NCBI RefSeq assembly: GCF_006345805.1
Contig: NC_043013.1
Coordinates: 34,100,001-34,164,000, forward strand
Length of the DNA stretch: 64,000 nt
Direction: 5' to 3'
Source: Octopus sinensis
Lineage: Eukaryota
In this document: in pieces, positions 3,228 to 61,770 of the stretch
How positions within the stretch are numbered: position 1 is the stretch's first letter
How the letters are laid out: each line of letters begins with the position of its first letter
The notes under the pieces: model-generated
Told to the model about the DNA's origin: nothing
What the model saw: the letters and a program-made list of their open reading frames with translations, nothing else
The model's database searches: none
Program-made: the position numbers and the translations under genes

Positions 3228-3375
3228 TATATGTCAAGACCTAAAAGTTTCATGCAATTTATCTTAGGACTGACTAACTCATCAGTGGATTGAAAGGAAA
3301 TTTCTTTTCAATATGATGATGAGTACAGCTGGCCATAATGTTGATTGCATGAAACCTTTAGGTTTGGATAAGTAA
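3228..3375. mobile_element. Degenerate hammerhead-bearing palindrome (PLE inverted pLTR-like)
   Basis: Arms meet near 3300. Minus arm has CTGATGA (3279-3285) and GAAAC (3247-3251). Plus arm has aTGATGA (3316-3322) and GAAAC (3351-3355). Confidence 0.65.
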
Positions 3376-3584
3376 TCCAGTTAAAATTCTACATAACACA
3401 TATGTATATGCATGAACAAACACAAAATACACATAAACCAGATATGTGTGTATATTTATATATACACACACATGATTATATATGTGTCTGGGGATAGGTT
3501 GTGTGTAAACTTTTACAAAATGAGATACCTTGTATACTTAATCTGATTGGCAACACATTTCTGTATAAAGACACCTATATGTAG

Positions 3585-3632
3585 TTATATATATACGTAT
3601 ATATATATATGTATATATAATATATACGTATG

Positions 3633-3663
<31 letters not shown>

Positions 3664-3664
3664 G

Positions 3665-3719
<55 letters not shown>

Positions 3720-3870
3720 GTATATATATGTATGTATATATATATATATATTATATATATATATGTGTATATATATATATGTATATATATATGTATATAT
3801 ATGTATATATGTATATATATATGTATATATATGTATATATGTATATATATGTATATATATATATATATAT
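3585..3870. repeat. (TA)n/(TATG) compound microsatellite
   Basis: Directly visible, and one of many such tracts. Confidence 0.95.
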
Positions 3871-4107
3871 AAGTTCTAGACACTGAATTACTAAACTTAC
3901 ATTGCTACATACATTTAGATATATAGATACATATATATCAATCTATATACATGTATATGTAAACAACATTATATATACTTACATATGAATATATATATAT
4001 AACATATACAAAAATCTCAAAATGGACATACATATACACATCCACGTATATTCACACACATTCATATATATGCATATATATATGAATGCAAATATCAATA
4101 TTATTAT

Positions 4108-4480
4108 CATCATTTAGTGTCTTCTTTCTATGCTAGCATGGGTTGGACTGTTTCATAGAAGCTGGCAACGTGGAAGACTGCATCAAACTCTGCTGTCTTC
4201 TTTGGCACGGTTTCTATGGCTAGATGCACTTCCTAATGCCGACCATTTTACAGAATACATGGGTGTTCTTAATGTGGCACCAGCAATTATGAGGTCACCA
4301 AGTTACTTGCAAGCCAAGACTACTCAACTGTGGATTGATTAGTATTGAGGGAGGTGGTTTTTGTGCCAGATGTTGAGAGGTTAGAGTGGGAATAAAGAGA
4401 CAGAAATAGGTGCCTTGCAGTGGTGGAGATACATGGTTACTTTATATGGAAAGAGAGAAGATTGTGAAGATGTGATGGCG
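4108..4480 (-). mobile_element. Family E retroposon (…ccaacccatgctagcatggaaa…(gat)n tail)
   Basis: Homologous to 28455-28852, 19460-19780, 35785-36060, 60245-60385 and 61100-61300. Confidence 0.7.
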
Positions 4481-4634
4481 AAGGAAGATGATGAATATAT
4501 GTATGTATGTTTGTATGTATGCATGTGTGTATTTATGTATGTATTCATGTAAGCAATGTATGTATTTACGTATGTTTATATGTATGTATGTTTGTATGTA
4601 TGTATTTATGTATGTATGTATTTATGTATGTGTT

Positions 4635-5150
4635 AAATTTTTTTCAATAAATATAAATCTCCCACTGAGGAAGGTGCTAGTTCCCATCAAAGATACAAGG
4701 CTCTATCTTTGGGATGTAGTTAACACAGACAAATTCACATTTGGAACTTGAGAAAAGTCTTGCATATTTTTACTGTTCCACTTACAGATTGCACTTGTAA
4801 TGTACGAATCAGCCGGTCGGTTTCTCTTTTTGAAAATCTCAGTTTACCCAGATTCTTCTTCAAGCATCTACTAACCAAACCTAGTGCTCCAATTATTATT
4901 CGTATGAATATGAATTCATAGTCTGGATATAGAAGCTGGAGGTTTCGAAGCAGTTGTCCATAGATATCATCTTTTTCATTGATTTTTAAAGAGAGATTTA
5001 TATCTGCAGGGCATATGATGGTATACACCTTTGCTCCTCTGTTCCAAATAACAATATCCGGCCTGTTATGTTTATATTTGACAGAAGTTTTACAGTATTC
5101 CTTGTATTTATGTATGTATGTATAATCTTTTGAAAACTGGTGTTATATGT
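4635..5150 (-). mobile_element. 5'-truncated R4/Dong-clade (RLE-type) LINE: endonuclease C-terminus plus 3' UTR
   Basis: Minus-strand translation KYKHNRPDIVIWNR...CPADINL..KINEKDDIYGQL...IIIGALG...SGTVKICKTFLKFQM* carries the PD motif and IIIGALG of a restriction-like endonuclease. It ends in a (CATA)n tract. Confidence 0.8.
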
Positions 5151-6020
5151 GGGATACATCAAATTTCATGCTTAGACTGTCAGTAAACAAATAGGCTTGA
5201 ATAGTGCACTATGTACAACTTGGTAATCGTTCAGTCTCAAATGACATGGATATTCCATGGAGATATATGAGAAAGAAAAATAAGTGAATAGGAAGAAATG
5301 CTTTAAAATAAAGTAGGGAAAATTTACATTGATTTAACCTGTTAAAAGAAGAATATTGTTAACATTTTGTGTCTTGATATCTAGAAATGCATACCTTCTG
5401 GAGGTATCAAATCAGAGAATGGTAAAGTGCATGAAACTGTATGTAATCTGGGAGAGGGGTAAGTTCCAGTTTGATAACAGAAACGTGTGAAATATACATC
5501 TTGTTTAGACGATTGATACAGTTCATCACATTCCTCTGAAGGCACCATCTGTCTACATCGAATCCCAAAAATTTATACGAGATGTGTACATCTCAATAAG
5601 TTTATGTTGTCAAACAGGAGGACACACCACACCACCAGATTAGACTTACACTTAATGCACACTTGATGCCTTTCCTCCACCACCACTAGACATAGATTTT
5701 AGATGTAATAATAACTCAAGAGTAACATTATTCTTTTTTAAAGACTTAAAAAGATATAATACCTATCACCCTTTCCTTTAAAACCTTTCTTAATTTTTTT
5801 CTTGTTTTCTTACATTTCCTCATTAAGTAGCAATGTAATTTGAGCCTGAAGGGATGCTGAATCATTTATGATAAGTTATACAAGCCAGATAGATTACTGT
5901 ATAATATGAGAATAAAATTAAAAATAGTTCATGTATAACTCCTTTATTTTTTAAATTCTATTTATCTCTCATCACTGAACTGGGTATTTTTTTTGTTGAT
6001 CCTATCAAAACGCAAACTGT

Positions 6021-6088
<68 letters not shown>

Positions 6089-6367
6089 TACACACCAACA
6101 CACATATATATACGTATATACTCCTATATATATGAGTTGAAAAATGTATAATTTATATATCTATATGTATATATCTATATATTTGTATGCATATTTGTAT
6201 AATTATATAGGCACACTGGATTTAGCACTAGCAAAAGTAAATTGCCTCGTGATTAAGATAGCTATAATTTTTTTATTCTTAATTGAAATGAATAAAATAC
6301 TGAAGAGCGATAAAAAAAATAGAGAAACTCTGACAATGCTTATACACAATTACATGAGTATCAGCTA

Positions 6368-6379
6368 ATACTACTACTG

Positions 6380-6428
<49 letters not shown>

Positions 6429-6445
6429 AGGGCAATGCTGCTGCT
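6368..6445. repeat. (CTA)n-(CTG)n trinucleotide repeat
   Basis: Directly visible. Confidence 0.9.
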
Positions 6446-6820
6446 TAGAACTACAACTAACAACATCAATAATTACCATTATTATTGTTGTAAAAATAAT
6501 ACCATCAATAATAATAATAATAATAGTTACAAAAATATCGAGTATGATGAGCATAACATAACAAAAACAACAACGAGCACAGAAAATTAAGGGAGCTGGA
6601 GAGAGGAAAGACGAAATGAGGAAAAGTGATGGGGTGACAAATGAGAGCAGCATGTATATTTTGAATTATTTATCTAACTTTGTTAATTTCTCTCAGATAG
6701 TGAAGTGATTGGAGAGGAAATGTATGCAAACGCATATTAAAAATTACATTCACACAAACACACAGCAAAAATATAAACAAGTGTGTGTGTGTCGCTCTCT
6801 CTCTCTCCCCATGTAATATA

Positions 6821-6875
<55 letters not shown>

Positions 6876-7044
6876 CTATAAATACAAATACAAAAACTTA
6901 CTTGGAGAACAGAAAAGAACGAAACGACGCGAGGGCGCTCAGTCATGCAATAAATTAATAAATAAAATATATGCATACATACATACATATATGTACGTAC
7001 CTACATCTACATGTATATATACATGCATATATAGACATATATAT

Positions 7045-7222
7045 GTGAGTACAGGACGCCACAAATAGACGTAGAACTTAACGAGAAACGAAAACGTAAA
7101 AACAAACATGGAAACGGACTTTTTTTAACAACGAAAAAACAGAGTACAAGACAAACAATACAAGGAAAATTCCCCTTCATCAGCTGTCCCTAGTTAGACT
7201 CCATGCGTGTTTCGAAGGAGGC
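7045..7222 (-). repeat. Family F repeat with a cGAAAC...CTGATGA motif pair, possibly a PLE terminal sequence
   Basis: Homologous to 1516-1630. The minus strand reads ccttcGAAACacgcatggagtctaactagggacagCTGATGAagggg. Confidence 0.5.
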
Positions 7223-7224
7223 TG

Positions 7225-8040
7225 CACTAGGCTGCCAGATCAGACTGCCTACCAGCATCATCAAGTGAGATTGTATTGCCATGTGGTGCGTCTTTGTTTT
7301 GCAGTGCTTCTGCCCTTTGCGTCGAGTTTTGCAATAATTGAAACAAAGAAACAGGGTGCTTCTGTGAAATTCTGTTTTCTGCTGGGGGAAATTGGCGGCC
7401 AGAACAGTTGCCATGCTTCAAACAGCTACCAAGGACATTGCCATGCAGAAAGCACAAGTTTATGAGTAGTCCATGCTTTAAGAATGTTCACTTGACGCTT
7501 GGAGACTAACCTTGCTCAGGACGAACGTCGACATCCTGAACGAATGAAAACATCAAGAAAATTCATGAACTGATCTTAGAAGACCATCACCAAACAATTG
7601 ACAAACTTGTTGATATGACAGCTGTGTCCTGGAGCTCCTGCCAATGAACTCTGAGTGAGGAACTGCGAAGGAAAATAGTTGCAGCAAAATTTGTGCCCCG
7701 CTTGCTCACAGAAGATCAAAACTAGTCATGAGTGAATGCACGTCGTGACCTGAAAGAAAATTTGGAAGATGATCCAGACCTTTTGTCGCAGGTCATCACT
7801 AGTGACAAAAGTTGATGCTATGGAATTTGCAGATGTTGAAGAGGTGAAAAAAAGCAAAGCGCTGGAGGTGTTGAAAAGCATCACTTTGCAAAAGTTCCAG
7901 CACTGTTTCAAATAGTGGAAAACATGCCTAACCATTGCATTGTTTCAAATGGAGACTACTTTGAAGGTGATACAAGTGTAAACATGTGAAAATAAGTGAA
8001 TAAAATAATATTGCAAAATTCCGGGTTCTCTTGGGAACCC
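7225..8040 (+). mobile_element. Internally deleted, pseudogenised mariner transposon
   Basis: Broken translation ASVKFCFLLG...SGRTSTS...VAAKFVPRLLTEDQ...LSQVITSDKS*CYG is joined at about 7824 to FADVEEVK...FQHCF...SNGDYFEGD. WVP(H/R)xL-like and GDYFE motifs are present and the catalytic middle is missing. Confidence 0.85.
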
Positions 8041-8099
8041 CACCCCATATATCTTTATATATATACATAAAATGTACATATATATATTATACATATGTG

Positions 8100-8158
<59 letters not shown>

Positions 8159-8177
8159 TATATATCCATATATGTAT

Positions 8178-8389
8178 ATTCTTTTATTCTTATACTGGTT
8201 TCCGTCATTTGACTGTGGCCATGCTGGAGCACCACCTTAAGTCAACTGAATCGGCCCCAGGACATTCTTTTTAAGCCTAGTACTTATTCTATCGGTTTCT
8301 TTCACCAAACCACTATGTTACAGGGACGTAAACACACCAACATCGGTTGTCAAGGGATGAAGGGGGGACAAACAAACATACAAGCATGC

Positions 8390-8436
<47 letters not shown>

Positions 8437-8543
8437 TACGATGGGCTTCTTTCAGTTTCCGCCTACCAAATCAACTCACAAGGCTTTGGTCAGCCCGAGG
8501 CTATAGTAGAACCCGGAACCATGTGGTTGGTAACAACACACCA

Positions 8544-8545
<2 letters not shown>
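8178..8545 (-). mobile_element. SINE family A
   Basis: Reverse-complement homology to 557-925, with an internal (TA)n. Confidence 0.85.
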
Positions 8546-8584
<39 letters not shown>

Positions 8585-8589
8585 ATAAA

Positions 8590-8993
8590 TATTAGGGAAT
8601 AAATCCAAATTTACAGGGAAAAAAATCAGATTTAGGATTAAATCCAATTTTATAGTAAAATATTATAAAATATTATTAGAGACAAAACCACTATTTTGCA
8701 AAACAAACAAGGAAAGACTTAATCAATACATAAAATTTAATAATAATAGTCAAAAAAACCGCCACTACAATCGTTTCTTGTCTTGATCGACAATCTTCAG
8801 GTGGACTTCCAATAAGTCAGTTTCAAATTATGAGAAACTGACTTATTGGAAGTCCACCTGAAGATTGTCGATCAAGACAAGAAACGATTGTAGTGGCGGT
8901 TTTTTTGACTATTTATTAAAATTTTATGTATTGATTAAGTCTTTCCTTGTTTGTTTTGCAAAATAGTGGTTTTGTCTCTAATAATATTTTATA
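8590..8993. mobile_element. Near-perfect palindrome with about 160-bp arms (8664-8824 / 8834-8993) plus a left-arm tail; PLE inverted pLTR-like
   Basis: Arms are reverse complements apart from a small AT-patch difference, with a 9-nt spacer. (TA)n flanks both sides. Confidence 0.85.
8854..8896 (+). ncRNA. Minimal type-I hammerhead ribozyme motif (mirror copy on the minus strand at 8762-8804)
   Basis: ccac CTGAAGA ttgtc-gatcaa-gacaa GAAAC gatt GTA gtgg: stem I ccac/gtgg, stem II ttgtc/gacaa, intact core and GUA cleavage triplet. Confidence 0.8.
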
Positions 8994-9660
8994 TATATAT
9001 ATATATATATATACAGCTACTCCTTATATATATATATACATACATACATACATACAAATATACATACATTCATAGGTACATATGTATGTATGCATACATA
9101 TATATTCATATACATATATATAATACTTACATTCGTATATTCATACATACTCATATTTATCTTAACTCTAAATGTATTTAAGCAAAAGTTCCTCTAATAT
9201 TTGGAGACATATGCTTATGGAGAAATCCACATAATAGCCTTAGTAAAGAACTTCATAAACGTAGGATGATGTTTATTAATTTTGGCAGAAAATAATAACA
9301 TCTTGCTCAACACATCCATTACACAATTTTGAATTACGCAGAAATACACATGCACAAACACATAAATACAAGCACACACCTACATTCACACATGCATACA
9401 CACAGCTCTTCGCATAATTAATTAGGATGTCACTTGACAGCAATCACTGCACGAAATATTTCGTTATCTTTTACAAATCTGTAACATATTAATCACTTTA
9501 TATGCTCTAGTACAGCTATTGAGTACGCAATCATCCTTGTTTTATATTGTCCTACAATAATCTTTTATGTGTCTATATGTATGTGACTGTGTCTTATCTG
9601 TATTCTTGTATATATATCAGCACACACATTGTGTATATGTGTGTGTGCGTGTGTTTATAT

Positions 9661-9956
9661 ATTCTGTAAATAATAATAGCAATTATAAGCTTAAAGCTTA
9701 TAAGCAATCACCATATATTGGCTTAAAAAAATAGTCTAATATTGGAACATATAAACTTTCGATAGAAAACAGTGGGTTTTGTGTACGCATGGGAATCGAA
9801 CCCAAAACTCATACATTTGTGTACACAAAACCCATATACAAAACTCACTTTCTTTCTATTAAATGCTTATATACTCAATATTAGACTATTATCTTCAGTC
9901 AATACACAGCAATTGCGAATATGCTTTAAGTTTTTAATTGCTATTATTTAGAGAAT
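9661..9956. mobile_element. Degenerate foldback/MITE-like inverted repeat
   Basis: aataatagcaatta...atagtctaatattg...gggttttgtgtac is mirrored by gtacacaaaaccc...caatattagactat...taattgctattatt. Confidence 0.6.
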
Positions 9957-9996
9957 TGTCATTTGTCTCTGTTTCTCCATTTAATACAGAAGATGC

Positions 9997-10028
<32 letters not shown>

Positions 10029-10270
10029 ATTTATATACACGCACACATATATATCACCGTATCACTGCATCAACCAGGTTATTGGATGCTGTTGCTATGC
10101 ACGACTGATCAAAATGCTTTTTCTTCCAATGGTTTAACTCCCAAACAATGGTACACTGCTAGTTAGGTAGCTAGGCTTATATATCAAATGGTGTGAGAAG
10201 TGTGAGAACTCATTATACATATGCTTACGCACAAATTGCTACTCAAATGCAGAGCAGAAAATGAAATTAA

Positions 10271-10627
10271 ACTAGAGCATTCAGAGAGCGAAAGCCTCCG
10301 CCAAGAAAATACTAAAGTCTTGTTGACGAATAACCACTATAATTTTTAAAATGATAATATATGAAATAAACTTGACTGCTCTAACAAACGAGAATACTAA
10401 AAATGAACCCGGCAAAAAAATTAAGTTAAAAAACGGGAAAATAATCCAGAAAACTTATCCGGTAATAGATCGATCCCAAAATCTAATCAGTTCGTGCCAG
10501 TCATGAGGCCAAACATCTCTGAAAGTTTCATTTGAATCCATCTAGAGGTTCTTGAGATAACTTGTCCACAGACAAACAAACACAACTGAAAACAATACCT
10601 CCGCCTTAGAGAAGGCGGAGGTAATAA
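10271..10627. mobile_element. Non-autonomous Helentron/HINE (DINE-1-like) element
   Basis: Terminal 12-bp hairpin tacctccgcctt-agag-aaggcggaggta (10596-10623), the cctccgcc motif repeated near the other end (about 10295), an internal acagacaaacaaac simple repeat, and A/T-run flanks. Confidence 0.65.
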
Positions 10628-12836
10628 ATGATAAACGAACAGAAAATTATGCAATAAAGTTTCTTGTATATTCCGTTTTTTGTCTCTATCATTTGTTGTA
10701 TACTCAACGAACGCTGAGCAATTCCTGGGGTAGATCCAATGACAATTGTGTAAATATTGTGAATTATGTCAGGTAGTCATAGGCAGTGAACGTGCATTAT
10801 CAGGTAGTATGTTTAAATAATTACTAATAAACACACACATATATCTCACACTGTTTTCTTTCTTTCCTCTCCCTCTATAATCCTCTATAATTTCCATTTA
10901 TACCCCCCTTCTTTGCTGTCCTCTTTCTCCCACTCCCTACTACCTTTCGTTTCTTCTCTCTTCTCCTCACTCCCTTTCTTTCTTTCTTTCTCTCATCCTC
11001 TCTCTTTTCCCCATTCCTCTCTGCCTGTTGTTCACACGTGTCTACGGACCATTTCTCTCGCCCCTGTCTTTTCTGGACAAGACATCCACCAGGCTGGACG
11101 TCATTTCTCTTGCCTCCCGACATTTTTTCTCTTCTATTATTTTCTTCTCTTCTCTTCTATTTCCTTTAAGACTTTCTCCCAGGCGTCACCCATTACAGTT
11201 CGTCTTGGCTTAACAGCACTTAATGCTTGTCTTCATCGATTTTGTACGACTTTGTACGTCCACTCTGTTGCTGTTTGTTTGTTCGAAGCCTTAACTGTCC
11301 ACAAATTTTATATTTTCAAAATTTCTGGATTCTGCTGTCTTATGACATTTTCCTATCTTGTCATTAAAAGCACGAAATAGGGAGTAGTAAAACAGCCGGT
11401 AACCGACGAGCGAGGCTTTTTGTTTTTGAATTTTATCCTGTACTGACCTCTCGAGTCGTGTCTTCACGTATTTTTCACTCGCTGGTGATGTCTTGTACAT
11501 GTGTATTATATATATATATATATATTGTGTATGTATGTACGTACGTATGTATGTATGTATGTATATAAGCATATATACAAATATGTATACATATAACTGA
11601 TAGATAATTGGTTAGGAACCTTGCCTCAAATACTATCCAACAATCTACCATCCTGTTTGGTTTTATATAATCAAGAATGTACTATTGTGCAATTCATGTT
11701 GACACCATTGAATTATGGTCTCATAGGTTCAACTTAAATTCTCTTATTCTACAACTATACAGATCGAATCATTTTATCAAAGGCTAGGTTAAAATTCCGG
11801 GTCTGAATGGCATTTAAGAAAAACTGAAAGCAGATGAGATAGTTGTATGGCTTTGGGTATATATATATATGTTGCAATGCACCAATAAATGTATATCGTT
11901 GTTATTATGTTAAACTGTCGTATGTCCAAACACGGTCAAATGCGTTTGATTCAGTATTTAATTTTGTTTGCAATAGCCGGTTCTTTGGGGCAAACTATCG
12001 TATCTCCTGCTGCTTGAGCTGCCAAGATATCAAAAATTGTCAAAGTGTAGTACAACGGTTTTGCTGTGGAATGGTGAAACAATTTTTTGTTTGTTTTTGA
12101 AAAAAAAAACACAATGATTTGGACTTACGACACTTTTGCATAATAGCAACTATATATATCATTTTTGTTTTGTGTTAGTCAGAGGGCTGCAACCAAGCTC
12201 GGTCATCACGTTGAATTACTCAGTTGAAAAAATATACCTTAATACTGAATTTTTAAATTCTGGTATTTATTTTATCCATCTTATTTGCTAATCCACAAGG
12301 ACATGAACAAACCGAACCTGGCTGTCAAGTAGAGAAGTGGGCACAAAAATCACACACATATACATATACGAAGAGCTTCTATGCAGTTTCCAAATATCGA
12401 ATTAATTTACAAGGTGCTATGCAGTGAGATTGAACCTGAAACGATATGATTGGAGAGTGAGCTTCTTAACTACACACCTATACCACATATGCATATATAT
12501 ATATGTATATGCATATTATATGCATATGCATGTATACACATACATGCATACACATACATGCACACATATATATATGCTTGCTTAGGCTTGTATCTCTCTC
12601 TCTTTCTTTATTTATATAAATGTATATATTAATATTCATATATATATATATATATAGCAATTGCAATTTCTTCAACAATTTTTCGAAGATTGTTCAGTAA
12701 GTGTGAAACTGTAATAAGTGGAGAATCCTTTAGCAAGCTAAGTGGAAATATTTTTATGTGGCAAGATGCACCCTCCCAACACCAATAGTAATCTCACTTT
12801 CTCACAAATACTCACACATACTTACAAACACACATA

Positions 12837-12839
<3 letters not shown>

Positions 12840-12869
<30 letters not shown>

Positions 12870-16946: not shown

Positions 16947-17275
16947 TGAGAGACAGAAAATGAAAATGGAATTCCTGAGGTTCTTCATTAATTGCTACAA
17001 CTATTTCAACCCAACCAGAGAAAACATGACCTTTACAGGTTATTTTTTCACCTGTATGTGACTAGCTACAGGAAAGTACCAAAATGTATTCTAATCAAAT
17101 TAAGTGAAAGAGAGATTATGAAATGAGGTACCTTTTGGCAGGTCACCTGATGAGGCACAAACAACTATTTCTATGGAATGTCATCACCCATGAAGGACTG
17201 ATGCCAAATGGGTCAAAACAACCATAATGATGAATAAAGAATCTTATGAATGCCATTTTCTTTTTCTTTCTCTCA
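16947..17275. mobile_element. Old, diverged inverted repeat with a decayed hammerhead core
   Basis: gaaaatgaaaatggaattcctgaggttcttc...aaccca mirrors tgggtc...gaatcttatgaatgccattttctttttc. The plus arm has tcac CTGATGA ggc (17147) ... gtc aAAAC aacc aTA atga. Confidence 0.55.
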
Positions 17276-17439
17276 AATGTTATAAACTCAACAGACATGA
17301 AAGAAGCAGGATTTAAATTCATATTGTTGATGACTTTAGGTAGCTGCATACAGGGAATGTGCTTCAAATGGCATAATACCAGGTGTATTGCTAAATTAAG
17401 AATTATATATGTATAATCTTTTTGTGGCACAGTTTGTGA

Positions 17440-19062: not shown

Positions 19063-19460
19063 TTGACCCATTCCTTACTGTATTTATTTTGAGATGCCCT
19101 GTGTTTCTTTCAATTACTTTAAATATAACAAAGAATTTAGTAAAATAACTTAGTTATCATTCAGCTAGTGTTAGGAACATAAATTGTGACTAAGGTTTGG
19201 TGGAAGATTTTAATTAAAAACTTATGAAAACAAGACATTTGTACTGTGGAGCCAGAGGTGGTTTCAGCCAGGTTGGTATCGAAAGGGTTAAATATAACAA
19301 AGAATTTTCTAAAATAACTTAGTTATCATTCAGCTAGTGTTAGGAACATAAATTGTGACTTAGGTTTGGTAGAAGATTTTAATTAAAAACTTATGAAAAC
19401 AAGACATTTGTACTGCAGAGCCAGAGCTGGTTTCAGCCAGATTGGTAACGAAAGGGTTAA
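19063..19460. mobile_element. piggyBac-like MITE (TTAA/CCCT ends) with a 169-bp duplicated right half
   Basis: Ends in ggtaacgaaagggTTAA, with TTAA at 19119, 19288 and 19457. A second copy lies at 48423-48821. Confidence 0.75.
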
Positions 19461-20039
19461 AGTCCATTTTCCATGTTGACATTGGTTGGACAGTTTGACA
19501 AAAGCTGGTCAGCCAGTTTTGGTAAGGTTTTAATGACTGGATGTCCTTAATGCAAAGGCTACTTTACTAAGGGTACTAGGTGCTTTTTATTGTGCCATCA
19601 GCACTGGTGAGATTGCTAAGTAGCTTGCAAGACAATACCTTTTGATTGTGAGGGCTGTGATATTTCAACAGGTGAATTATACCAGGTGTTGAGAGGCGAT
19701 AGTATGAAAGCCGTATAGGAACAGGTGTCCTGCTATAGAAAAGAAACATAGCTAAGCCAGCTGGAAAAAGGAAGAAGTAGATAGTGGTGATGTAGTACCA
19801 GTACCTTCCCCCAGGGTACAGGGGGGTTAAGTTGATGGGCATGGTGATAGAAAAGCAGGTGAGGTGGAAGGGAACAGTAGAACAAGATGAAAGGGATAAG
19901 GGTAGAATATCAGGTAATTTCACAAGTGTGAGATGAGTGACACGTATGCAGAGTTAGGGGTTATAGGAGTGTTGTATAGGTGATGTTGTGAAAGAAATAG
20001 GAGTGGGCCAGGAAAGAGGATGTGATTTTTTATCTTTCA

Positions 20040-20853: not shown

Positions 20854-21080
20854 TCAAGCAAAGTTAGGGCTGCTGGTGGAGTAGAAGAATTTAAGTGAGT
20901 TTGTATTGAAGATTGCATGATGAAGGCAGTGTTTTCTGATTAAGTTAAGGAAATACTTGGCAATGGGTGTGGTCACTCGGAGACTGATTGGGGGAGTGTA
21001 CCATATGTTTTGTGTATTCTTGTCGTTGGGTTTGTTTATTTCTAAGTATTGATTCGTTAAAACTTTAAAGTATTGATGGG
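20854..21080 (-). pseudogene. Penelope-like element ORF remnant (post-RT linker region)
   Basis: NIWYTPPISLRVTTPIAKYFLNLIRKH..HHAIFNTNSLKFFYS matches the PLE motif IIWFNPP...FLxLIxKHF...IFNxNTxKxSYS. Confidence 0.7.
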
Positions 21081-26367: not shown

Positions 26368-26370
<3 letters not shown>

Positions 26371-26624
26371 TGTTTGTAGAAATACATATATCCAGAGAAG
26401 CACACTCTAAAGTTTAGAGCAGTTAATATTATAATGGGGAGGCTGGTTTATGGGGTTACTCTGGGTTTCTTGCTCATAAGAGGTTTAGCCTTACAGAGTA
26501 TCTTCAGACCCCAAAACACTGCTGGTCTAATTGTTTTGGAGTCTGAAGATACGTTGCAAGGCTAAACCCCTTATGAAGGAGAAACCCAGGGTAACCCCAG
26601 AAACCGGCTTCTCCCATTATAATA
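26368..26624. mobile_element. Hammerhead-bearing palindrome (arms 26427-26518 / 26532-26624) plus a left tail
   Basis: gg(a/g)gt CTGAAGA (26543-26549) ... GAAAC ccagg GTA acccc (26581-26598), mirrored on the minus strand. The arms differ at roughly a dozen positions. Confidence 0.75.
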
Positions 26625-27557: not shown

Positions 27558-28075
27558 TATAAGCGAGAAAGAAGCAACAAGAATGGATAGGTTTTTAGTA
27601 CGATCGTTTCATACAAGGACAGGGTTTATTAAAAGTTGCAAAGATTACAGCATATAAACGAGTCCCGTACTCATCAGCTAAAATACATGTAAGTTCTCTA
27701 GACATCCTAGTGTTTGAGGCTATACTCATGAAGTAATGTAGATAATTAAACAGATTCTAAAGTTTAGAATCTGTTTAATTATCTACATTACTTCATGAGT
27801 ATAGCCTCAAACACTAGGATGTCTAGAGAACTTACATGTATTTTAGCTGATGAGTACGGGACTCGTTTATATGCTGTAATCTTTGCAACTTTTAATAAAA
27901 CCTGTCCTTGTATGAAACGATCGTACTAAAAACCTATCCATTCTTGTTGCTTCTTTCTCGCTTATAATCACCCCACATTACTGTATTGTTAAATCAGTAT
28001 AGTTTTTTTTGGTGCATCTAAGTTAGGTACCATATTCAAGTAAATTTTTTTAAATTAACTTGAATCTTTATTGCT
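27558..28075. mobile_element. Almost perfect 409-bp palindrome (27558-27966, centre 27762) plus a right tail; PLE inverted pLTR-like
   Basis: 204-bp arms around a single central G, with one mismatch noticed (acagggttt vs aaaacctgt). Flanked by TA tracts. Confidence 0.9.
27841..27931 (+). ncRNA. Type-I hammerhead ribozyme motif with extended stem II (mirror copy on the minus strand at about 27593-27683)
   Basis: ttttag CTGATGA gtacgggac...gtccttgtat GAAAC gatc GTA ctaaaa: 6-bp stem I, intact core, palindromic stem III ACGATCGT. Confidence 0.8.
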
Positions 28076-28094
28076 CTTTGTATATATATATATG

Positions 28095-39059: not shown

Positions 39060-39390
39060 ACTATTGTATAAACCTTATAGACACCCTGCTAACAATATGA
39101 CGCTGTGATGGAATTCTACCACTGCCCACTGGCATCTCAATCAACATTTACCTTCCCATTGCAACTTATACAGTCACAGCCCCTCAAAACATGACAAGTA
39201 ATCTAGGGTTTGTGACATAATCTGGTTTCACCCCCACCCTTCTATCTTAATATCCAAAAGAGGTTACCCAAGCAATTTTTTGCTTTGTTAGAAAAACGCT
39301 TCCCCAGATCTAGTAAATTTAGCAAGATATTAAACCCCCAATCAATGAAGCTGTCCTCTTGGTATTTATTGGATAGTAAATGTCTCACCA
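39060..39390 (+). pseudogene. Penelope-like element RT/linker remnant
   Basis: LYKPYRHPANN (39064) followed by DIIWFHP...KQFFALLEKRFPRSSKFSKILNPQSMKLS (39214-39357), both resembling PLE motifs. Confidence 0.7.
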
Positions 39391-48422: not shown

Positions 48423-48821
48423 TTAACCCTTTCACTACAATATTTATTTTGAGATGCTCTGTGTTTCTTTCAATTAATTTTACATATAACAAAGAATTTA
48501 GTAAAATAACTTAATTATCATTGAGCTAGTGTTTGGAACATAAATTGTGACTAAGATTTGGTGGAAGAGTTTAGTTCAAAACTTATGAAAACAAGACCTT
48601 TGTGCTACAGAGCTAGAGGTGGTTTCAGTCAGGTTGGTATCGAAAGGGTTAAATATAACAAAGAATTTAGTAAAATAACTTAATTATCATTAAGCTAATG
48701 TTAGGAACATAAATTGTGACTGATGTTTGGTGGAAGATTTTAATTCAAAACTTATGAAAACTAGACATTTGCACTACAGAGCCAGAGCTGGTTTCAGCTG
48801 GGTTGGTATCAAAAGAGTTAA
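48423..48821. mobile_element. piggyBac-like MITE, second copy with a duplicated right half
   Basis: Starts TTAAccctttc. Right ends at TTAA 48649 and 48818, 169 bp apart. Confidence 0.75.
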
Positions 48822-49023
48822 ATATAACATACTTTCAGCAACAGTATATAAATTGGCCACACTGTATGGTCTCAGAATCCATACTATGCCATTGTGTTGC
48901 TTTAATTTATTGCTGCATTTTATTGTATTTACTTTAGTTTTGTTATGGTTTTTGCTTTTGCTTATGATTGATTCTTTTATTTGTTCTTATTACTGATATA
49001 GAGAAAAAGTAACTTGTTATATA

Positions 49024-53132: not shown

Positions 53133-54331
53133 TTGTTTATCTACTTTTCTTTCTTCAATTGTATTCCGAGTGAAAATGCAATCGGTTAGCATATGCAGAA
53201 TAACATAGTGGACAAATGGTTACAGAGTATCTTTTGAGGGCAACATACTGACAAGTATGTTTGAATATAAATATCTTTTGATGACTATGACAAAATAGCA
53301 AGGACAAGTATTCAAAGTAAATGAACAAAAAATATGAAAATAAAAATCTTTTGGAAATAATTTCCTATTCAATGTATAGAATAAAGTTACGTTGCACTAT
53401 TTTGCAACATGCTTTTATTTCAAAGAACACAAATATAAATTTACCCGAGATGATGCGTGTGTGTGAATATGTATGCCTATATATATGTGTGTGTGTGTGT
53501 TTATGTGTATGTGTATATACACACATACACACATATATACAAAAGATATTTATATGTATGTTTTTACATACATATATAGACTTATATGTATATATAACTA
53601 TGCACAAATATGTGTGTGTTTATATATATATATCTATATATTTATATATACACACACATGTATGTAGGTATATGTATACATATATATGTATATACATGTT
53701 TATGCATATAGATATATATATACATATATGTGTGTGTATGTACAGATACATAAATGTATATATGTGTGTGTGTGTGTGTGCACATGTGTACGTGTGTGTG
53801 AATTCAATAATGAAGGAAACTGCAGTGTCTTCTATCTTCTATATTAGCCATAAGGAATATATTGGAAGAGATTTATTAATAACATAATGCTGTGATTGTC
53901 CATTAACTGTCCAGTTTTCTTAATATTCAAAATAAAATTCCATTTATTTCGTAAGAAACTTTCAAGCTTCAAGCCAAGAGAATGAAAGTAACAACCTTAT
54001 TGAATTCTATTTGATGATTTTTCTTTACTCTCCCTCCCTCTCTTCTCTCACACATATACATATGCTTATATATATGCATATATACACATGAATTATATAT
54101 ATATATATATATATACATACATACACACACAGATATATACATATAGATTCATACATATGTATATATACATATATATAGATATAGATATATATATATATGT
54201 ATAAGTACATGCATACATATATTTTTATATACATAATGCATATGTATATATACATGTGTGCATATTATATATATATATGTGTCATAAATATATTATATAT
54301 GCATATCTGTCTATTTATCTATCTATCTATC

Positions 54332-54362
<31 letters not shown>

Positions 54363-55364
54363 ACAAGTGTTTCCATATATATGATCATATATATATACAC
54401 ACACACTTGTTCATATACACACACACACAATGTTTTATTTCATTTTTCAGGTTGATGGTCAGTACATCAAACCAAAGGCGAAGGCTTTCTGTTGAAAAAT
54501 GTTGATGTGAAATTACATTACTTACTTCAATAATACAAGAGAGAATCACATCTCTTAAATAAATGTGTTATAACCAAGAAAATGGCAATTTTTTTCTTTT
54601 TCTTTTTCTTCTTTTTTTTTTTTGCTTTTTAATTTTCATTTTACTCATTTTGATGTGACAAGTGAAAGGACATTTCTGAATCTATCAGCTTTGACACAGC
54701 AGAATAATCACCATCCATCATCATAATTGTCACCAAAATCATCATCATGATAATCATTAATAGAGTCGCAGAGAATACCTTGTGGCATTTTGTTCCAGCT
54801 TTTATGTTCTACATTCAAATCCTGCTGAGGTCAGCTTTGACTTTCATCCCTCAAGGGTAGTTAAAATAAAATGCTGATCAAGTACTCTTCCCTAAAAACT
54901 GCTGGCCTCATGACATAATTAATTATTTATTATAAATATGGAATAAACGCTTAGTGGCATTTCATCCATCTGCCAGTTCTGAGTTCAAATTCTGCTGAGG
55001 TCGACTTTACCTTTCATCCTTTATCCTTTCAGGATGAACCCCAGTGGGCAGCTAGTATTTATTTTATCAACCCTGAAAGGTTGATAATCAAAGTTTGACT
55101 TTGGCTAGATTTGAACTCAGGATGTAAGAATCAGACAAAACGCTGCTAACCTTTTATCAGATGCATTCACAATTCTGCCAGCTCACCTTAACAACTACAA
55201 CAACAACAATAATGAAAATAGCAATCCTTTCTACTATTGACACAAAGCCTGAAATTTGATGGTGGAGATTGGTGATGTAATCGACCAGTCCCCTCTCAAA
55301 TTTCAATCCTTGTGCCACCAGTAGAAAGGATTATTATTATTATTATTATTATCATTATTATTAA

Positions 55365-55403
<39 letters not shown>

Positions 55404-55419
55404 CATCATTGTTGTTGTT

Positions 55420-55633
55420 GTTGTTTTGCTTCTCAGAATGCTTGGTCTTGTTTCTGGCAGATTCCGTGAGAGTGGACAGCAGCCTGTTGTCAGATGTCTC
55501 ACGGGGTCTCTTTCCACACATCATAAGCTTTGATACTTGGTTATTAATTATCGTGGGAGACATTCAGCAACCAAGTACCAATCTCAGAACCCCAGCTGTC
55601 CCCAGCAGAGCAGTTTTTTGGGCTTCCTTTACT

Positions 55634-55637
<4 letters not shown>
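55420..55637 (-). mobile_element. R4/Dong LINE 3' end inserted in (TAA)n
   Basis: Minus strand RVKEAQKTALLGTAGVLRLVLGC* (QK..LLGTA.IL motif). Both flanks are AAT/AAC repeats. Confidence 0.75.
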
Positions 55638-55686
<49 letters not shown>

Positions 55687-55734
55687 CATCTTTGCATTGT
55701 CCCCCTCATCCTTCACCCCTGTAGAAAATAAATG

Positions 55735-55774
<40 letters not shown>

Positions 55775-56257
55775 TATTATTATTAGTATCACTACCATTA
55801 TTATCATATAGATGGTGAGCTGGCAGAATTGTGAATGCATCAGATAGAAGGTTAGTAGCATTTTGTCTGACTCTTAAATTTTGAGTTCAAATCTTGTCAA
55901 AGTCAAACTTTGATTTTCATCCTTTCAGGGTTGATAAAATAAATGCTAGCTGTTCACTGGGGTTCATGTAATCAATTAGTCCCCTTCCCCAAAATTTCAA
56001 GCCCTGTGCTTATAGCAGAAACAGATTATTATTGTTGCTGCTGTTGTTAAGGTGGCATGATGGCTGAATCGTTAATGCATTGGACAAAATGCTTTGTGAA
56101 ATTTCTTCTGACCCTTTATCTTCTGATTTCAAATCCTGCTGAATCCAACTTATTATTTTGGAGTCGATATGATAAACTACCAGTCAAGTACAGGGTGTCC
56201 AAAAGGTCCCCCTGCCATGAATTTTTCGAAGACACCATCAACAGCAAAAGATATTCT

Positions 56258-56478
56258 CTCTTTACTCTTTACTCTTTTACTTGTTTTAGTCATTTGACTG
56301 CAGCCATACTGGAGCACCACCTTTAGTCAAGCAAATTGACCCCAGGACTTATTCTTTGTAAGCCTAGTACTTACTCTATCAGTCCTTTTTGCCAAACTGC
56401 TAAATTAAGGGGACGTAAACACATCACTATCGGTTGTCAAGCAATGTTGGTGGGAGAGACAAACACAGACACACAAAC

Positions 56479-56536
<58 letters not shown>

Positions 56537-56620
56537 GATGGGCTTCTTTCAGTTTCTGTCTACTAAATCCACTCACAAGGTTTTGGTTGGCCCAAGGCTA
56601 TAGTAGAAGACACTTGCTTA
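56258..56620 (-). mobile_element. SINE family A
   Basis: Homology to other copies. Confidence 0.85.
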
Positions 56621-56654
56621 CTGAGTAGAAGACTTCTTATAGTAGAAGACTTTT

Positions 56655-56952
56655 GCTTATTGAGCAAAAAACACCTAAAGCTCCATGAGGCTCCAGCAGG
56701 GGGGTAATGGCAAACCCTGCTGCACTCTTTCACCACAACTTTCTCTCAATCTTTCTTCCTGTTTCTGTTATACCTGTATCTCAAAGGGTCAGCCTTATCA
56801 CACACAGTGTGACGCTGAATAATCTCAAGAACTACGTTAAGGGTACACATGTCTGTGGAGTGCTCAGCCATTTGTACGTTGATTTCAAACAGGCTGCTCC
56901 TTTGATCGGATCAACTGGAACCCTCATTGTCATAATCAATGGAGTTCCACAA
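56655..56952 (+). mobile_element. SINE with a family C body and the tail seen at 49730-49897
   Basis: attgagc.aaaacacctaaag.tcca.gaggctccagcaggggg matches 30850-30950, and the sequence then switches tail. Confidence 0.7.
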
Positions 56953-57084
56953 AACCGTGTATATACTTACTTTTTTTTATCCTTTCATTATATATAAACC
57001 CCCACACTTTACATCTGTCTTTGTGCTTTTACCCCTCATCCTTCATCTTGGTGGAAAATAAATGAAATCAGCATTATTATAATT

Positions 57085-57295
57085 AGTGAGCTGGCCAAAT
57101 AATTAGCACACTGCTGGGTGAAATGCTTAGTGGTATTTTGTCTGCCACTATGCTCTGAGTTCAAATTCCGCTGGGGTTGCCTTTGCCTTTCATCCTTTTG
57201 GGGTCGATAAATAAAGTACCAGTGAAACACTTGGGTCGATGAAAATGACTATCCCCCTCCCCTTAAATTTTGGACCTCGTACCTTTAGTAGAAAG

Positions 57296-57343
<48 letters not shown>

Positions 57344-57640
57344 GAATGTGGTAAGTTGGTAGGAAGTACCAGTTTAGCATTTGGTGCTCAACTTACCATC
57401 ACCCCAAGAAATTTTAGGCCCTGTGCCTGTTATAGAAAGAATTATTATTATGGTAATAAGCTGGCTGGATCATTAACATGCCTGGCAAAATGCTTAGGGG
57501 CAATTTGTCCATCTTTATGTTCTGATTTCACATTATGCAGCGGTCACCTTTACTTTTCATCCTTTCAGGGTCAATAAAATAAGTACCAGTTACGCACTGG
57601 GGTTGATGTAAAATTTCAAACCTTGTGCTTTTAATAGAAA
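57085..57640 (+). mobile_element. SINE family B cluster in (ATT)n
   Basis: Homology to family B. Confidence 0.75.
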
Positions 57641-57642
57641 GG

Positions 57643-57675
<33 letters not shown>

Positions 57676-58227
57676 GCAATGGTTGTAGTATAAGTAATGA
57701 TGGTGGTGGTGGTGGTAGTGATTGTGGTGATGATGTGTGTGGAAGCCGTGGTGGCACTATCCACCACACCCACCCTTTCTCATGATTATTAAATATCTCT
57801 GTCACTCCATTTACACCAATAGCGTCAATCTAAAGGTTATCAATATTATTGGAAATAAGTGGCAGATAACCCAATACTTTGTTCCTTTCCTATATACTCA
57901 CACTCACACACGCACACACACAATACGCGAAAAAAACACACATACACATGTGTATATGAGAGAGAAATTGAGAGATATATATTTGGTTTGTCTTCTGGTT
58001 TTTCTCTATTTTATTCATGGATTTATCTTTCATTTTACTTATATATGTGTATGTGTGTGTATGTGTGTGTGTGTGTGTGCGTGTGTGTGTGTGTACATAT
58101 TTTTTTTTTTATTTTTAATCTTGTTGCATTTTGTCATTTTCCAATGTCAATTCCACCATATATCTAAAAACGGAAAATATTATACTTATTATTGTTATTA
58201 TTATTATTATCATCATTATTATTACTG

Positions 58228-58284
<57 letters not shown>

Positions 58285-58576
58285 TTGATAATGATATTGA
58301 CAAAGTACATTACATATTACAAGGATCAAAGAGATTATAAGAAATTTTAGTTTCCTGAAAAATTACATTCAGGCTTGGTTTAGGAATAATATCAAAGCTT
58401 ATATATATATATATATATATATATGAAAAATTATCAAAAAAAAAGAAAAAAAGCAGAAAAAGATATATAAATCAAAATCTTTCAGAGTTAATTCATATCC
58501 AACATGAAAATTGGTTGGAAGAAAAAAAGAAAGAAAAAAGAAAACAAATGAATAAATTATTAAAAGCACGATTGAA

Positions 58577-58626
<50 letters not shown>

Positions 58627-59426
58627 GAATGTTATTTTTTGCCAAAGTAGATGTCACATTTTTCTTCAGCTTTGCTACAATTTATGTTTCGTTTTTTTTT
58701 TTTCAAATTAAAACTATACAAAACACCGCTGGGGCAGGAGAAAGGGTTATTACCTAAAGATTTGTGTGAATTTCTTTTTTTGATTTCACATATTTTTTTT
58801 TTTTTGCTGTTATTGTCATATTCTTTTTCTTCAGAATATTCTTTCTTATCCTTAAGAGACCCAGTATCACCAAATAATTTGATGTCTCATATTGATTTGC
58901 TACTAAGTCATTCACCTTCCTCATATCAACACCATTGTCAAGAGGAGGAGGAGGAGGAGGAGGAGGTGAGGATGAAAGATGAGGAATAGAACCAAACACT
59001 TTTGTTGCAGAGTATCTTGTTTCAAAGAAATCTGCCACCTGAAGAATTATTCATGCATATAAGAAACAAATGCCTGCCACATTATCTGAGATATGTTGGA
59101 AGAATGGTTAAGTTTTCTTTGCAATCAGAAGGTCTCAGTTTCAAATCCACTACCTGGCAACTTGGCCAAATGTCATTTGCTATGGCTTTTAACAAACCAA
59201 TATCTTTTAAGTTAAACAGGGCTGATAAAAACTAAAAACTTTATCGAATCCTCTAATATCAAGGCTCAACATTTTCCACACATCATTTCATGCTGATTTG
59301 ACTAGTGAATTACATTAAACCCTTTTGAGACCATCCCACCTGAGACTACTCATAACCACACAGTTCAAACTTCTTGTTTTAATGTCATTTAAGTTCAAAA
59401 CTTCCATTCAAAATTTCATACACTTT

Positions 59427-59832
59427 AACTTGTTTCAGTCATTTGACAGTGGCCATGCTGGAGCACTGCCTTTAGTCAAGCAAATCGACCCCAGGACTTA
59501 TTCTTTGGAAGCCTAGTACTTATTCTATCAGTCTCTTTGGCCAAACCGCTAAGTTACGGGGACGTAAGCACACCAGCATCGGTTGTTAAGTGATGTTGGG
59601 GGGGACAAACACAGACACACAAATACACAAACACACACACACACATACACACACACACATATATATACACATGCATATATACGACAGGCTTCCTTCAGTT
59701 TCTGTCTACTAAATCCACTCACAAGGCTTTGGTCGGCCTGAGGCTATAGTAGAAGACACTTGCCCAAGGGACTGAACCCAGAGCCATGTGATTGGTAAGC
59801 AAACTACTTACCACACAGCCACTCCTGCGCCT
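59427..59832 (-). mobile_element. SINE family A, full length
   Basis: Homology to other copies. Confidence 0.85.
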
Positions 59833-59938
59833 AATGGTAATTTATGTTACAAACACCAGTTATTGAGTTCTTTGTTATTTTCAGAATTAATTGGAACAAA
59901 GGAAATGTATTCCAACAGAAATATGGTAACAATAGAAC

Positions 59939-60166
59939 TATCCCTTTAGCATTCAGATTATTCTGTCAAATGCAATGCTTTATTTCTTCACATTGCTTTG
60001 AATTAATCATGCATTATCCCATAGCTTTAGAATTTTGGCGATGCAATTCTATAATTTTAGAATAACATTGTAGGGCAGGTGTGAGAGGCTAGTTCTGGAC
60101 AGCTTGAACATAAAACAGGTAAAACATTTGGGCCAGGTATGGCCAGTTTAAATGCTAAGGGGTTAT
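59939..60166. mobile_element. piggyBac-like MITE family 2
   Basis: ccctttagcatt ... aatgctaaggggtta, homologous to 45456-45639. Confidence 0.65.
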
Positions 60167-61515
60167 GGTACAACTGTCTGTGGAATACTCAGCCACTCAT
60201 TCAATGAGCCTTGTAAAATAGTTGGCTTAACAACTGAACCCTCATCATCATCGTTTAACGTCCGCTTTCCATGCTAGCATGGGTTGGACGTTTTGACTGA
60301 GGGCTGGCGAACCAGATGGCTGCACCAGACTCCAATCTTGATCTGGCAGAGGTTCCACAGCTGGATGCCCTTCCTAATGCCTCATGGTCAGAAATTCCAA
60401 TCAAGATCTATTTTATCTGATATACAAAGACTTTGGTAGCTCGAATGTTAATGTAGTGGTGGTGGTGGTGGTGGTGGTGGTGGTGGTGATTGTGGCAGTG
60501 ATATGATGGCAGTAAGAGTATAGTGGTGGTTTAGGAATAAGAGTGTGTAAATGAAGGTGACACTGGTGCAGTGGTAGAGATGCACATGTTAAAAGTACCC
60601 AGTACACACTGTAAAGTGGTTGGCACTAGGAAGAGCATCCAGTTGTACAAACCAAGCCAAATCAGACTGGAACCTAGAGCAGCTATCTGGCCCTGCCAGC
60701 TCTGGGCAAACCATCCGACCTATGCCAACATGGAAAGCAGATGTTAACAGATCATGATGATGATGATGCTATATAAGTTATATGTGTAATAGTTAAATGA
60801 TACATTACGCATGTTAATGGGTTTTCTTATGCCAACGATTCTCCTTGGTCCAGGGGAATATTGCCTGGCATAAAACCAATCACTAGTGTAGGCAAAAGAA
60901 ACCTCATTATATCCTGTTGTGCTAATAATTATTTACTATAGAAGATGCAAAATAAGAAAAAACTATATCCATGGTTATTTGATCTACTAGAATTAGCAGC
61001 TAAATTTCACTCAAATCATAAACCTTACAGTTATAAAAGTGGAAAAAAATCCATTAATAATTACATGTGTGTATCATCACCATCATCATCATCATCATCA
61101 ATAAACCTTCGTTTTCCATGATGGCATAGGTTTAACAGTTTAATAGGAACTAGTAAGTTGGAGACCTGTATCAGGCTCCAGTCTGTTTTGGCTTGGTTTC
61201 TACAGCTGGATGCCCTTCCTAATGCCAATCACTCAAAGAGTGTTGTGGGTGGCTTTTATGTGACACCAGCACTGGTCATGATTACAATTTCACTTGGCTT
61301 GGCATATCTACACACAGGACTATAAATATATAGAGTATATGGCATATAATTAAGAATGTAAATGTATATAAACATATATCTCAAAGAGAGAGAGAGAGTT
61401 TGTGGCCATTTAAGCTCCCCAAACTGCAATATATTGGAGTTCAGATTCTGAATTCAAATATTATCTAGCCATATGCATAAATTTATTGGTTCACTTTGTA
61501 GCTAAGAAGATATAT

Positions 61516-61567
<52 letters not shown>

Positions 61568-61571
<4 letters not shown>

Positions 61572-61770
61572 TGGTAAAAACGGTAAGATAACAAAAGAAA
61601 GAAAGAGACCTCAATATTATGTAAATAGAGGAAATTTATCTATAAAATAATATGTTACATTTACTCAATAGTCAAAATAAAACTCAGAGTTTCAGATGCC
61701 GAAGTGGAAATCCACAACACCATCTCTTCGGTTATCTGGCCATCAAAGAGATGGCCAGATAACCGAAGGG
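61568..61770 (-). mobile_element. PLE-like terminal fragment with a variant hammerhead core and a short 19-bp snap-back arm
   Basis: Hairpin cttcggttatctggccatc-aaaga-gatggccagataaccgaag (61726-61768). Minus strand reads agataa CCGAAGA gatg...catct GAAAC tctga GTT ttattt. TA tracts lie on both sides. Confidence 0.6.

Follow-up and report, generated by a model that had tools for sequence, protein, structure and literature searches.

Six inverted repeats were examined in a window of 64,000 nucleotides from the genome of Octopus sinensis (contig NC_043013.1, positions 34,100,001 to 34,164,000 of the forward strand; coordinates below are those of the window). They lie at 3228-3375, 8664-8993, 16947-17275, 26427-26624, 27558-27966 and 61726-61768, and are designated P1 to P6, respectively. 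A sequence-only reading of the window had described them as head-to-head palindromes bearing hammerhead ribozyme motifs, unrelated in primary sequence and derived from Penelope-like elements (PLEs). Comparison of each repeat with the window by blastn located all six as described and found their sequences mutually unrelated. One-sided tails and TA-rich ends were seen across the palindromes. We regard them as 5'-truncated PLE insertions, and consider it probable that their two arms were primed by the two strands of one target break on the same RNA.

The two best-preserved palindromes are P2 and P5. P2 consists of a left arm (8664-8830, minus strand) and a right arm (8831-8993, plus strand) of ~165 bp that are 96% identical. 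Each strand carries a strict outward-facing hammerhead with an intact core and stems I and II, a minimal type I motif at 8762-8804 on the left and its counterpart at 8854-8896 on the right. A tail of ~77 nt with TA at its end extends the left arm only (8587-8663, minus strand), and the right arm terminates in (TA)n at a position that we call the inner site. Inner and tail ends are 57-120 nt apart in the families studied. The arms of P5 (27558-27761, minus strand, and 27763-27966, plus strand) are 204 bp long and 99% identical, with strict outward hammerheads at 27593-27683 and 27841-27931. Here the inner-site end, in (TA)n, belongs to the left arm. The right arm matches the 3'-terminal 207 nt of a 4553-bp unit encoding a reverse transcriptase (RT) and a GIY-YIG nuclease, and its tail (27967-28080, plus strand, followed by TA) matches the initial 120 nt of the following unit, the 5' leader directly preceding the open reading frame (ORF). 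In P4 (26427-26624, arms 82% identical), with a tail of ~57 nt on the minus strand (26370-26426), both cores (~26452-26512, minus, and ~26538-26598, plus) and stem I are present.

The other three palindromes carry a motif in one arm or decayed cores only. P1 is old (73% arm identity over 3239-3363), with a near-intact core on the minus strand (3279-3285) and a decayed one on the plus strand; a probable tail at 3114-3227 on the minus strand lies between the arm end and a TA tract, its approximate boundaries being drawn by analogy. P3 combines a short arm of ~46-70 bp (16947-17015, minus strand), which is an inverted 3' end with its outer end in (TA)n and holds only the 3' half of the motif, with a long arm (17045-17405, plus strand) that includes a ~120-nt tail and a decayed, non-canonical and C-rich hammerhead-like motif at ~17185-17232. 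The long arm of P6 (61569-61745, minus strand, end in (TA)n) has a 65-nt tail (61569-61633) and a U4C-variant hammerhead (61676-61737). Its short arm of 21-25 bp (61746-61768, plus strand) contains stem I and half a core, stops short of the inner site and does not attain the element end, in which it differs from 11 other inverted P6 copies. The P6 core (61721-61737) reads CCGAAGA, the U4C change, with an extra U preceding GAAAC in 25 of 25 copies of this young family; relatives in a genome sample keep the usual core (L195). Core boxes, stems I and II and a short palindromic loop III are thus present in both arms of P2 and P5 and in the majority of the P4 family, and P1, P3 and P6 deviate from the minimal type I hammerhead. 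The proposed common architecture with outward hammerheads in both arms, found in three of the six palindromes, accordingly holds for P2, P5 and P4, not for the partly decayed P1 or the partial motifs of P3 and P6; likewise the core is intact in most P4 copies and fixed as a variant in P6. The P2 subfamilies exchange U-A for A-U at the base of stem II.

Concerning the frequency of these motifs, seven cores were found in the window against none in the reversed sequence, and 22 against two in a 600-kb genome sample made up of 60 ten-kb stretches at fixed positions. A strict hammerhead descriptor gave four against none in both. A chance origin of the cores is excluded. Outward cores occurred in five of 12 inverted repeats in the window (three of them in both arms) and in six of 71 inverted-repeat rows of the sample (five loci, none in both arms); the window is about ninefold richer in hammerhead-bearing inverted repeats than the sample, and hence atypical. 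TA sequence lay on both sides of five of the six hammerhead-bearing rows of the sample, compared with eight of 65 others and a background of 12% per side, and the earlier claim of TA targeting is supported. The reading of the loci as ORF-less integration products, and their abundance, are likewise supported. Extrapolated roughly from 600 kb, the genome would contain ~90,000 cores of the hammerhead type, and inverted repeats bearing a hammerhead would number ~20,000. An Rfam scan of the window gave no hammerhead family among the best 150 of 402 rows, only TA-driven microRNA matches.

We then considered whether the palindromes could act as ribozymes. Single arms folded no better than shuffled sequences in six of six cases (z -1.5 to 1.1), as is expected for dimer-type hammerhead motifs. 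In the folded palindrome 98-100% of the hammerhead region is paired, so that read-through RNA would be double-stranded RNA (dsRNA) and no ribozyme, and the suggestion that these loci serve as ribozyme and dsRNA at once is not sustained. Nothing indicates a function for the palindromes, and their transcription and cleavage are hypothetical; the hammerheads are probably passengers of the element end. Low or absent activity has been described for monomer hammerheads (PMC4209133), and any activity of the motifs here is putative. The inverted repeats may nevertheless be a source of dsRNA. No RNA dataset was among the public runs listed for P5. At window positions 27879 and 27917, A to G changes occurred in three contigs each of one public run and in none of three others, a weak hint of editing in a run that is only guessed to be RNA and comes from other individuals.

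The origin of the arms was examined in the genome itself, where 973 (P5), 641 (P2), 589 (P4), 1265 (P6), 5 (P1) and 219 (P3) candidates were found and at most 40 of each were scored. The P5 arm proved to be the 3' end, or pseudo-long terminal repeat (pLTR), of an RT and GIY-YIG unit in L061, L062 and L207, and the P6 and P2 arms map to the 3' ends of such units in L092 and L093 and in L271, respectively. The parent ORFs of all three families are interrupted by frameshifts or stops, and in three broken ORF pieces Pfam returned no RT family and only a weak GIY-YIG match (E 0.002, below the curated cut-off). ORF-bearing copies of P1, P3 and P4 were absent among 6, 25 and 25 loci with 1.5-kb flanks, and no P1 parent was found among the five candidates; for these families the architecture alone fits. 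The assignment of the arms to PLE ends therefore stands for P2, P5 and P6, and P1, P3 and P4 remain unlinked. Two decayed PLE coding relics, both from the linker between RT and endonuclease (EN), lie in the window as had been claimed, at 20869-21006 (minus strand, tblastn E 2e-5) and 39237-39356 (plus strand, E 7e-5).

The P5 and P6 proteins contain all four of an RWK motif, a DKT motif, a CxCx5C linker and a CxxC near the conserved E and the C-terminus, and the protein of a decayed P2 copy contains KWK, CxxC and CxH. Inspection by eye, made independently of a reference alignment, found no cysteine pair between GIY and YIG, where the Hydra clade lacks a CCHH motif, in P6 and one cysteine in P5 and P2. 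The parents of P2, P5 and P6 appear to carry the motifs of the Hydra clade; an identification as Neptune was replaced once the Hydra clade motifs had been compared. The Hydra clade comprises C-terminal EN+ PLEs with (TA)n targets and hammerheads and has an octopus member, Hydra-1_Obim, which itself prefers (TA)n (PMC8557442). The parents resemble it in the order of RT and GIY-YIG, the RWK, DKT, CxCx5C and late CxxC motifs, the pLTR hammerhead and the (TA)n target, and differ from it in the length of the P5 unit (4.55 kb, compared with generally less than 3 kb) and of the tails (57-120 nt, compared with 30-40) (PMC8557442). The copies show the preference for (TA)n, whose flanks hide any target-site duplications, and partial tandems, inverted 5'-truncated copies and tails at one end were all found. 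The tandem forms are full PLE units, and the other copies are solo or head-to-head. Between RT and nuclease, two families have stretches rich in asparagine (L061 5006-5300, L271 5300-5900) that resemble those of Adineta Penelopes (PMC3846280). A perfect palindrome with arms of at least 542 bp, centred in a PLE RT coding region, was met in a blind 10-kb sample (L148 1-1084).

The ends of the arms follow a simple rule. The P5 search gave 43 rows representing 35 independent insertions, all of which were inspected; 28 are inverted and seven solo. All 28 inverted copies pair an arm ending at the inner site with one that ends past the tail (p 4e-9 for a free 50:50 choice). Five solo copies are of the tail type and two of the inner type. 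By hand count the rule also holds for 47 of 48 P2, 11 of 12 P6 and 11 of 13 P4 inverted loci, the P6 and part of the P2 loci having been selected with queries that included the tail. Head-to-head pairs within 10 kb account for 62 of the first 100 of 588 exact P5 matches (31 pairs), and this set includes no tail-to-tail pair. Arm lengths are 60 bp to 4.5 kb in P5 and 20 bp to 4.5 kb overall, and the junctions vary from copy to copy. An apparent 5' end that recurred in P5 at position 4194 of the reference copy was traced to a 30-bp indel in that copy. The base before the terminal TATA (equivalent to window 27962) is G in 11 of 31 P5 inner-site arms and in none of 50 tail arms, with overlapping loci counted twice; this G may derive from the target and mark the position of the cut. 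In L056 (1666-1826) and L236 (1380-1986), 160-600 nt of other sequence separate the P2 arms. The spacer of L056 is a repeat of the flank on the far side of the tail, a pattern that would fit a jump of one cDNA to target DNA ahead of joining.

This variability bears on the possibility that the palindromes are self-standing non-autonomous elements, akin to retrozymes or miniature inverted-repeat transposable elements (MITEs), that move as whole hairpins and constitute ribozyme or dsRNA loci. A single P2 centre is shared by 36 of the 100 arms listed, intronless P2 copies with upstream promoter sequence exist, and animal retrozymes have been described as non-autonomous PLE derivatives (bioRxiv 10.64898/2026.07.22.740005), all of which would suit such mobility. 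On the other hand, centres vary widely, arm lengths form a continuum that extends to full-length elements, and the tandem monomer arrays of non-LTR retrozymes, with a hammerhead in each monomer, are not seen here. The ends are asymmetric, unlike the terminal inverted repeats of a MITE or DNA transposon, an origin that had been raised against the PLE reading, and the full hairpin buries the ribozyme. We consider whole-hairpin mobility improbable, although it may apply to the commonest P2 centre, and the notion of separate non-autonomous families is not supported in view of the copy-to-copy variation in junctions and arm lengths. P2 itself was for a time taken to be a parentless non-autonomous family, because the initial search favoured spliced copies; this was dropped when copies bearing introns and ORFs appeared.

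The sequence-only reading had proposed snap-back integration. In the version considered here, a single cDNA primed at the tail end would fold onto itself and be extended up to the inner site, where a nuclease or TA microhomology would join it to the target; central deletions would follow later. This accounts for the single tail per insertion, for centres at self-complementary motifs and for the 13 P5 copies whose tail arm is longer and the eight with equal arms. The short arm of P6 in the window resembles a local fold-back, and the tail has been attributed to nuclease resolution of an intermediate (PMC8557442). The earlier claim that the longer arm bears the tail held as to the one-sided tail, but the tail-less arm is longer in seven of the 28 young P5 copies. 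These, and many P2 copies (L037, L039, L224, L233, L243), require a secondary deletion under snap-back. The tail arms of several P2 copies span little beyond the tail (L046, L047, L223, L255, L302), a geometry as in L1 twin priming, and in L046, L255 and L302 the deletions needed would have to end near the inner site. Tail-less solo copies (L006, L218, L040, L041, L058) are left without explanation. A simple snap-back is not supported by these copies, and snap-back followed by deletion seems to us rather unlikely, though it is the rival that we take most seriously.

The arms of a pair appear to descend from one template. Among 26 of the 28 inverted P5 pairs (two were unscored), arms within a locus differed at one of 97 polymorphic positions, compared with 525 of 1220 (43%) between loci, when the comparison excluded the target junction, a single pyrimidine-rich stretch and 15 nt at each centre. 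The pairs share 27 alleles that are absent from every other locus. Identical alleles are also what snap-back would give. A further possibility is that of long-read fold-back artefacts of assembly, for which the 99% identity of the P5 arms and a P5 centre unseen in four public short-read assemblies might speak. We find an artefact scarcely credible: the arms of P1, P3 and P4 have diverged by 17-27%, the ends follow a family-specific one-tail rule, and junctions of the inner site to TA are present in three public runs.

Further evidence on the template came from P2. In the P2 parents, the initial 26 nt of the short copies lie 1.0-1.8 kb upstream and are followed by GTAAGT, a splice donor, and the remainder starts after TTTTAG, the acceptor, directly before the hammerhead. 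The exact join of the two exons is present in either arm of the window's P2 (8814/8813 in the left arm, 8844/8845 in the right), and the 1.0-1.8 kb GT-AG intron of the parents is gone. Of the joins counted, 77 were exact, three and one were shifted (overlapping loci counted twice), and a parent allele with its donor shifted by 4 nt is matched by copies with four extra bases. Two sister subfamilies with other first exons gave eight donor-bearing and ~90 joined forms among the first 100 of 139; in L295 the intron is 1464 nt. The first 100 of 1900 exact P2 core matches comprised 26 spliced, 72 unspliced and two other copies. Opposite-strand pairs within 15 kb, not each of which was confirmed as a single insertion, were unspliced in both arms in 15 cases and spliced in both in six (four independent); mixed pairs numbered 0 of 19 (p 8e-5). 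An identical splice state would again be obtained by snap-back. The block of promoter, first exon and donor is often repeated two to three times, 1.0-1.2 kb apart, in P2 parents (L279/L280, L283/L284, L291/L292). Two upstream forms of P6, considered as products of splicing, differ by a microhomology deletion.

The P2 copies from the first genome search all stop at one 5' point. Of 130 spliced arms extending to this point the first 100 were inspected; 79 terminate on the A of an initiator-like motif and 10 one base later, giving 89 at two adjacent bases. G stands in place of the parent C in 58 of the 79 arms by hand count, and in 22 of 43 with the commonest junction set aside. A copied cap would yield such an extra G, as in L1, and the 5' stop is probably a capped start site.

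By their exon joins, the spliced arms show that the template of P2 had sense polarity. This bears directly on the proposal, made for Adineta vaga Penelopes, that self-priming of an antisense RNA produces the head-to-head repeat and explains intron retention (PMC3846280). The proposal fits the polarity of the 31 P5 pairs, and the intron is indeed kept in 72% of the P2 copies. However, an antisense RNA is not spliceable at sense GT-AG sites, and yet 26% of P2 arms, including both in the window, are spliced, and these arms stop at the likely start site. We judge antisense self-priming very unlikely for the elements studied here.

We propose instead that the palindromes are 5'-truncated PLE insertions in which cDNA synthesis on a single sense RNA is primed by both cut strands of a TA repeat, the two products then being joined head-to-head, an account that we hold to be probable. 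It connects what the copies display directly, namely arms that are element 3' ends in three families, paired fixed ends, shared alleles and a shared splice state. The GIY-YIG nuclease would cut both strands within (TA)n; of the two target 3' ends, one would prime from the inner site and its partner from the end of the tail, and the first cDNA would be displaced by a second enzyme. Synthesis of either cDNA would halt at random or at the capped 5' end of the RNA, and the two would anneal at a few self-complementary bases, followed by fill-in. In P2 the distance from the promoter to both start sites is 175-250 nt; a spliced message would therefore yield only short dead-end copies, and full-length copies would require a read-through RNA whose downstream pLTR retains the intron. 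Solo copies of both kinds, and the tail arms that stop near the inner site, fit double priming directly. The paired ends, unequal arms, shared alleles and splice state together favour it over snap-back or antisense self-priming.

Several points weigh against this account. With no sites removed, the P5 allele contrast is weaker (23 of 181 within and 997 of 2843 between loci), and assembly polishing or gene conversion could inflate allele sharing. The end rule has exceptions: L303, a P2 locus with two inner-site arms, the P6 copy of the window, and L075 and L088; the use of tail-containing queries counts in the same direction. Eleven of the 100 spliced P2 arms continue into parent upstream sequence, and intronless source copies may therefore exist. 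Thirty-six of the 58 extra Gs occur in one recurring junction whose other arm also supplies G. P5 showed neither a spliced form nor an alternative 5' exon at the one place tested. The centre of the P5 palindrome was not covered by contigs of four public runs, which is evidence neither way. Long palindromes lose their centres by asymmetric deletion, and central deletion could turn snap-back products into copies with longer inner arms. Finally, PAc, the protein of an Anolis Poseidon element, showed no strand difference in start-site choice (PMC11167929), so that the one-of-each rule calls for an asymmetry that has yet to be observed.

Comparison with known systems places these results as follows. 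Purified PAc cuts and extends both strands in vitro, and two internal start sites bound the tail (PMC11167929), observations that agree with double priming. The elements studied here resemble it in AT-rich targets and, on the account proposed, in the cutting and extension of both strands, in two internal start sites and in a hammerhead dispensable for insertion; PAc belongs to another clade, and the available text leaves inverted products unexplained (PMC11167929). In the twin priming of L1, two primers from one target cut act on one RNA and the products are joined by microhomology. L1 inversions have no sequence duplication and a variable second site, whereas here the site is fixed and the arms overlap; because of this overlap strand displacement is needed. 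Adineta vaga Penelopes likewise form head-to-head repeats with junction palindromes, and further shared features are a tail on one arm, an initiator-like motif in the pLTR and asparagine-rich ORF stretches; they differ in the proposed antisense template, the spliced arms here requiring a sense one (PMC3846280). Dual minimal hammerheads on opposite strands 100-700 bp apart have been ascribed to truncated PLEs in Schistosoma, and metazoan PLE hammerheads share with ours the type I form, short stem I, palindromic loop III and opposite-strand pairs (PMC4209133). P2 and P5 lack the G10.1-C11.1 pair usual in PLE hammerheads (PMC4209133), and U4C is fixed in P6. The P2 intron ends directly before the ribozyme, as in Penelope of D. 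virilis (PMC4209133), whose intron is near the promoter (PMC2377424).

An inverted 5'-truncated copy with a one-sided tail has been drawn as typical of PLEs (PMC8557442). Head-to-head arms, one-sided tails, (TA)n targets and opposite-strand hammerheads are therefore already known, and the claim of a new, under-annotated class does not hold, its layouts being in print (PMC4209133, PMC3846280, PMC8557442). What is added is evidence on mechanism. The formation of inverted PLE ends is stated to be open in the available text of PMC8557442 and PMC3846280, and that of PMC8557442 contains no count of one tail per pair, allele test or spliced copies. In the literature covered, which left several older works outside its scope, we found no printed account of double or twin priming or of spliced, intronless retrocopies of PLEs.

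Other features of the window include a seventh, older inverted repeat at 9672-9948 (72% identity, TA on both sides), whose sole core-like motif is inward-facing and non-canonical. A 135-aa frame at 4735-5142 (minus strand) has no Pfam match and presumably resembles the C-terminal restriction-like nuclease of a non-LTR retrotransposon. Two dimers of one 169-bp tandem unit, at 19119-19461 and 48480-48829, lie 29 kb apart.

Three constraints can now be placed on the formation of inverted ends: one arm of each kind, one template, and a template that is sense and sometimes spliced. They speak against the published idea of antisense self-priming. An enzyme able to write onto the two strands of a single break, starting at fixed internal positions, is also relevant to RT-based genome writing. 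Whether Hydra-type elements in general use obligatory double priming at two fixed sites, with spliced, capped messages giving dead-end palindromes and introns persisting through read-through RNA, we regard as evenly balanced. If true, obligatory double priming would answer the puzzles of both inverted ends and intron retention, and would have left ~20,000 hairpin loci in this genome.

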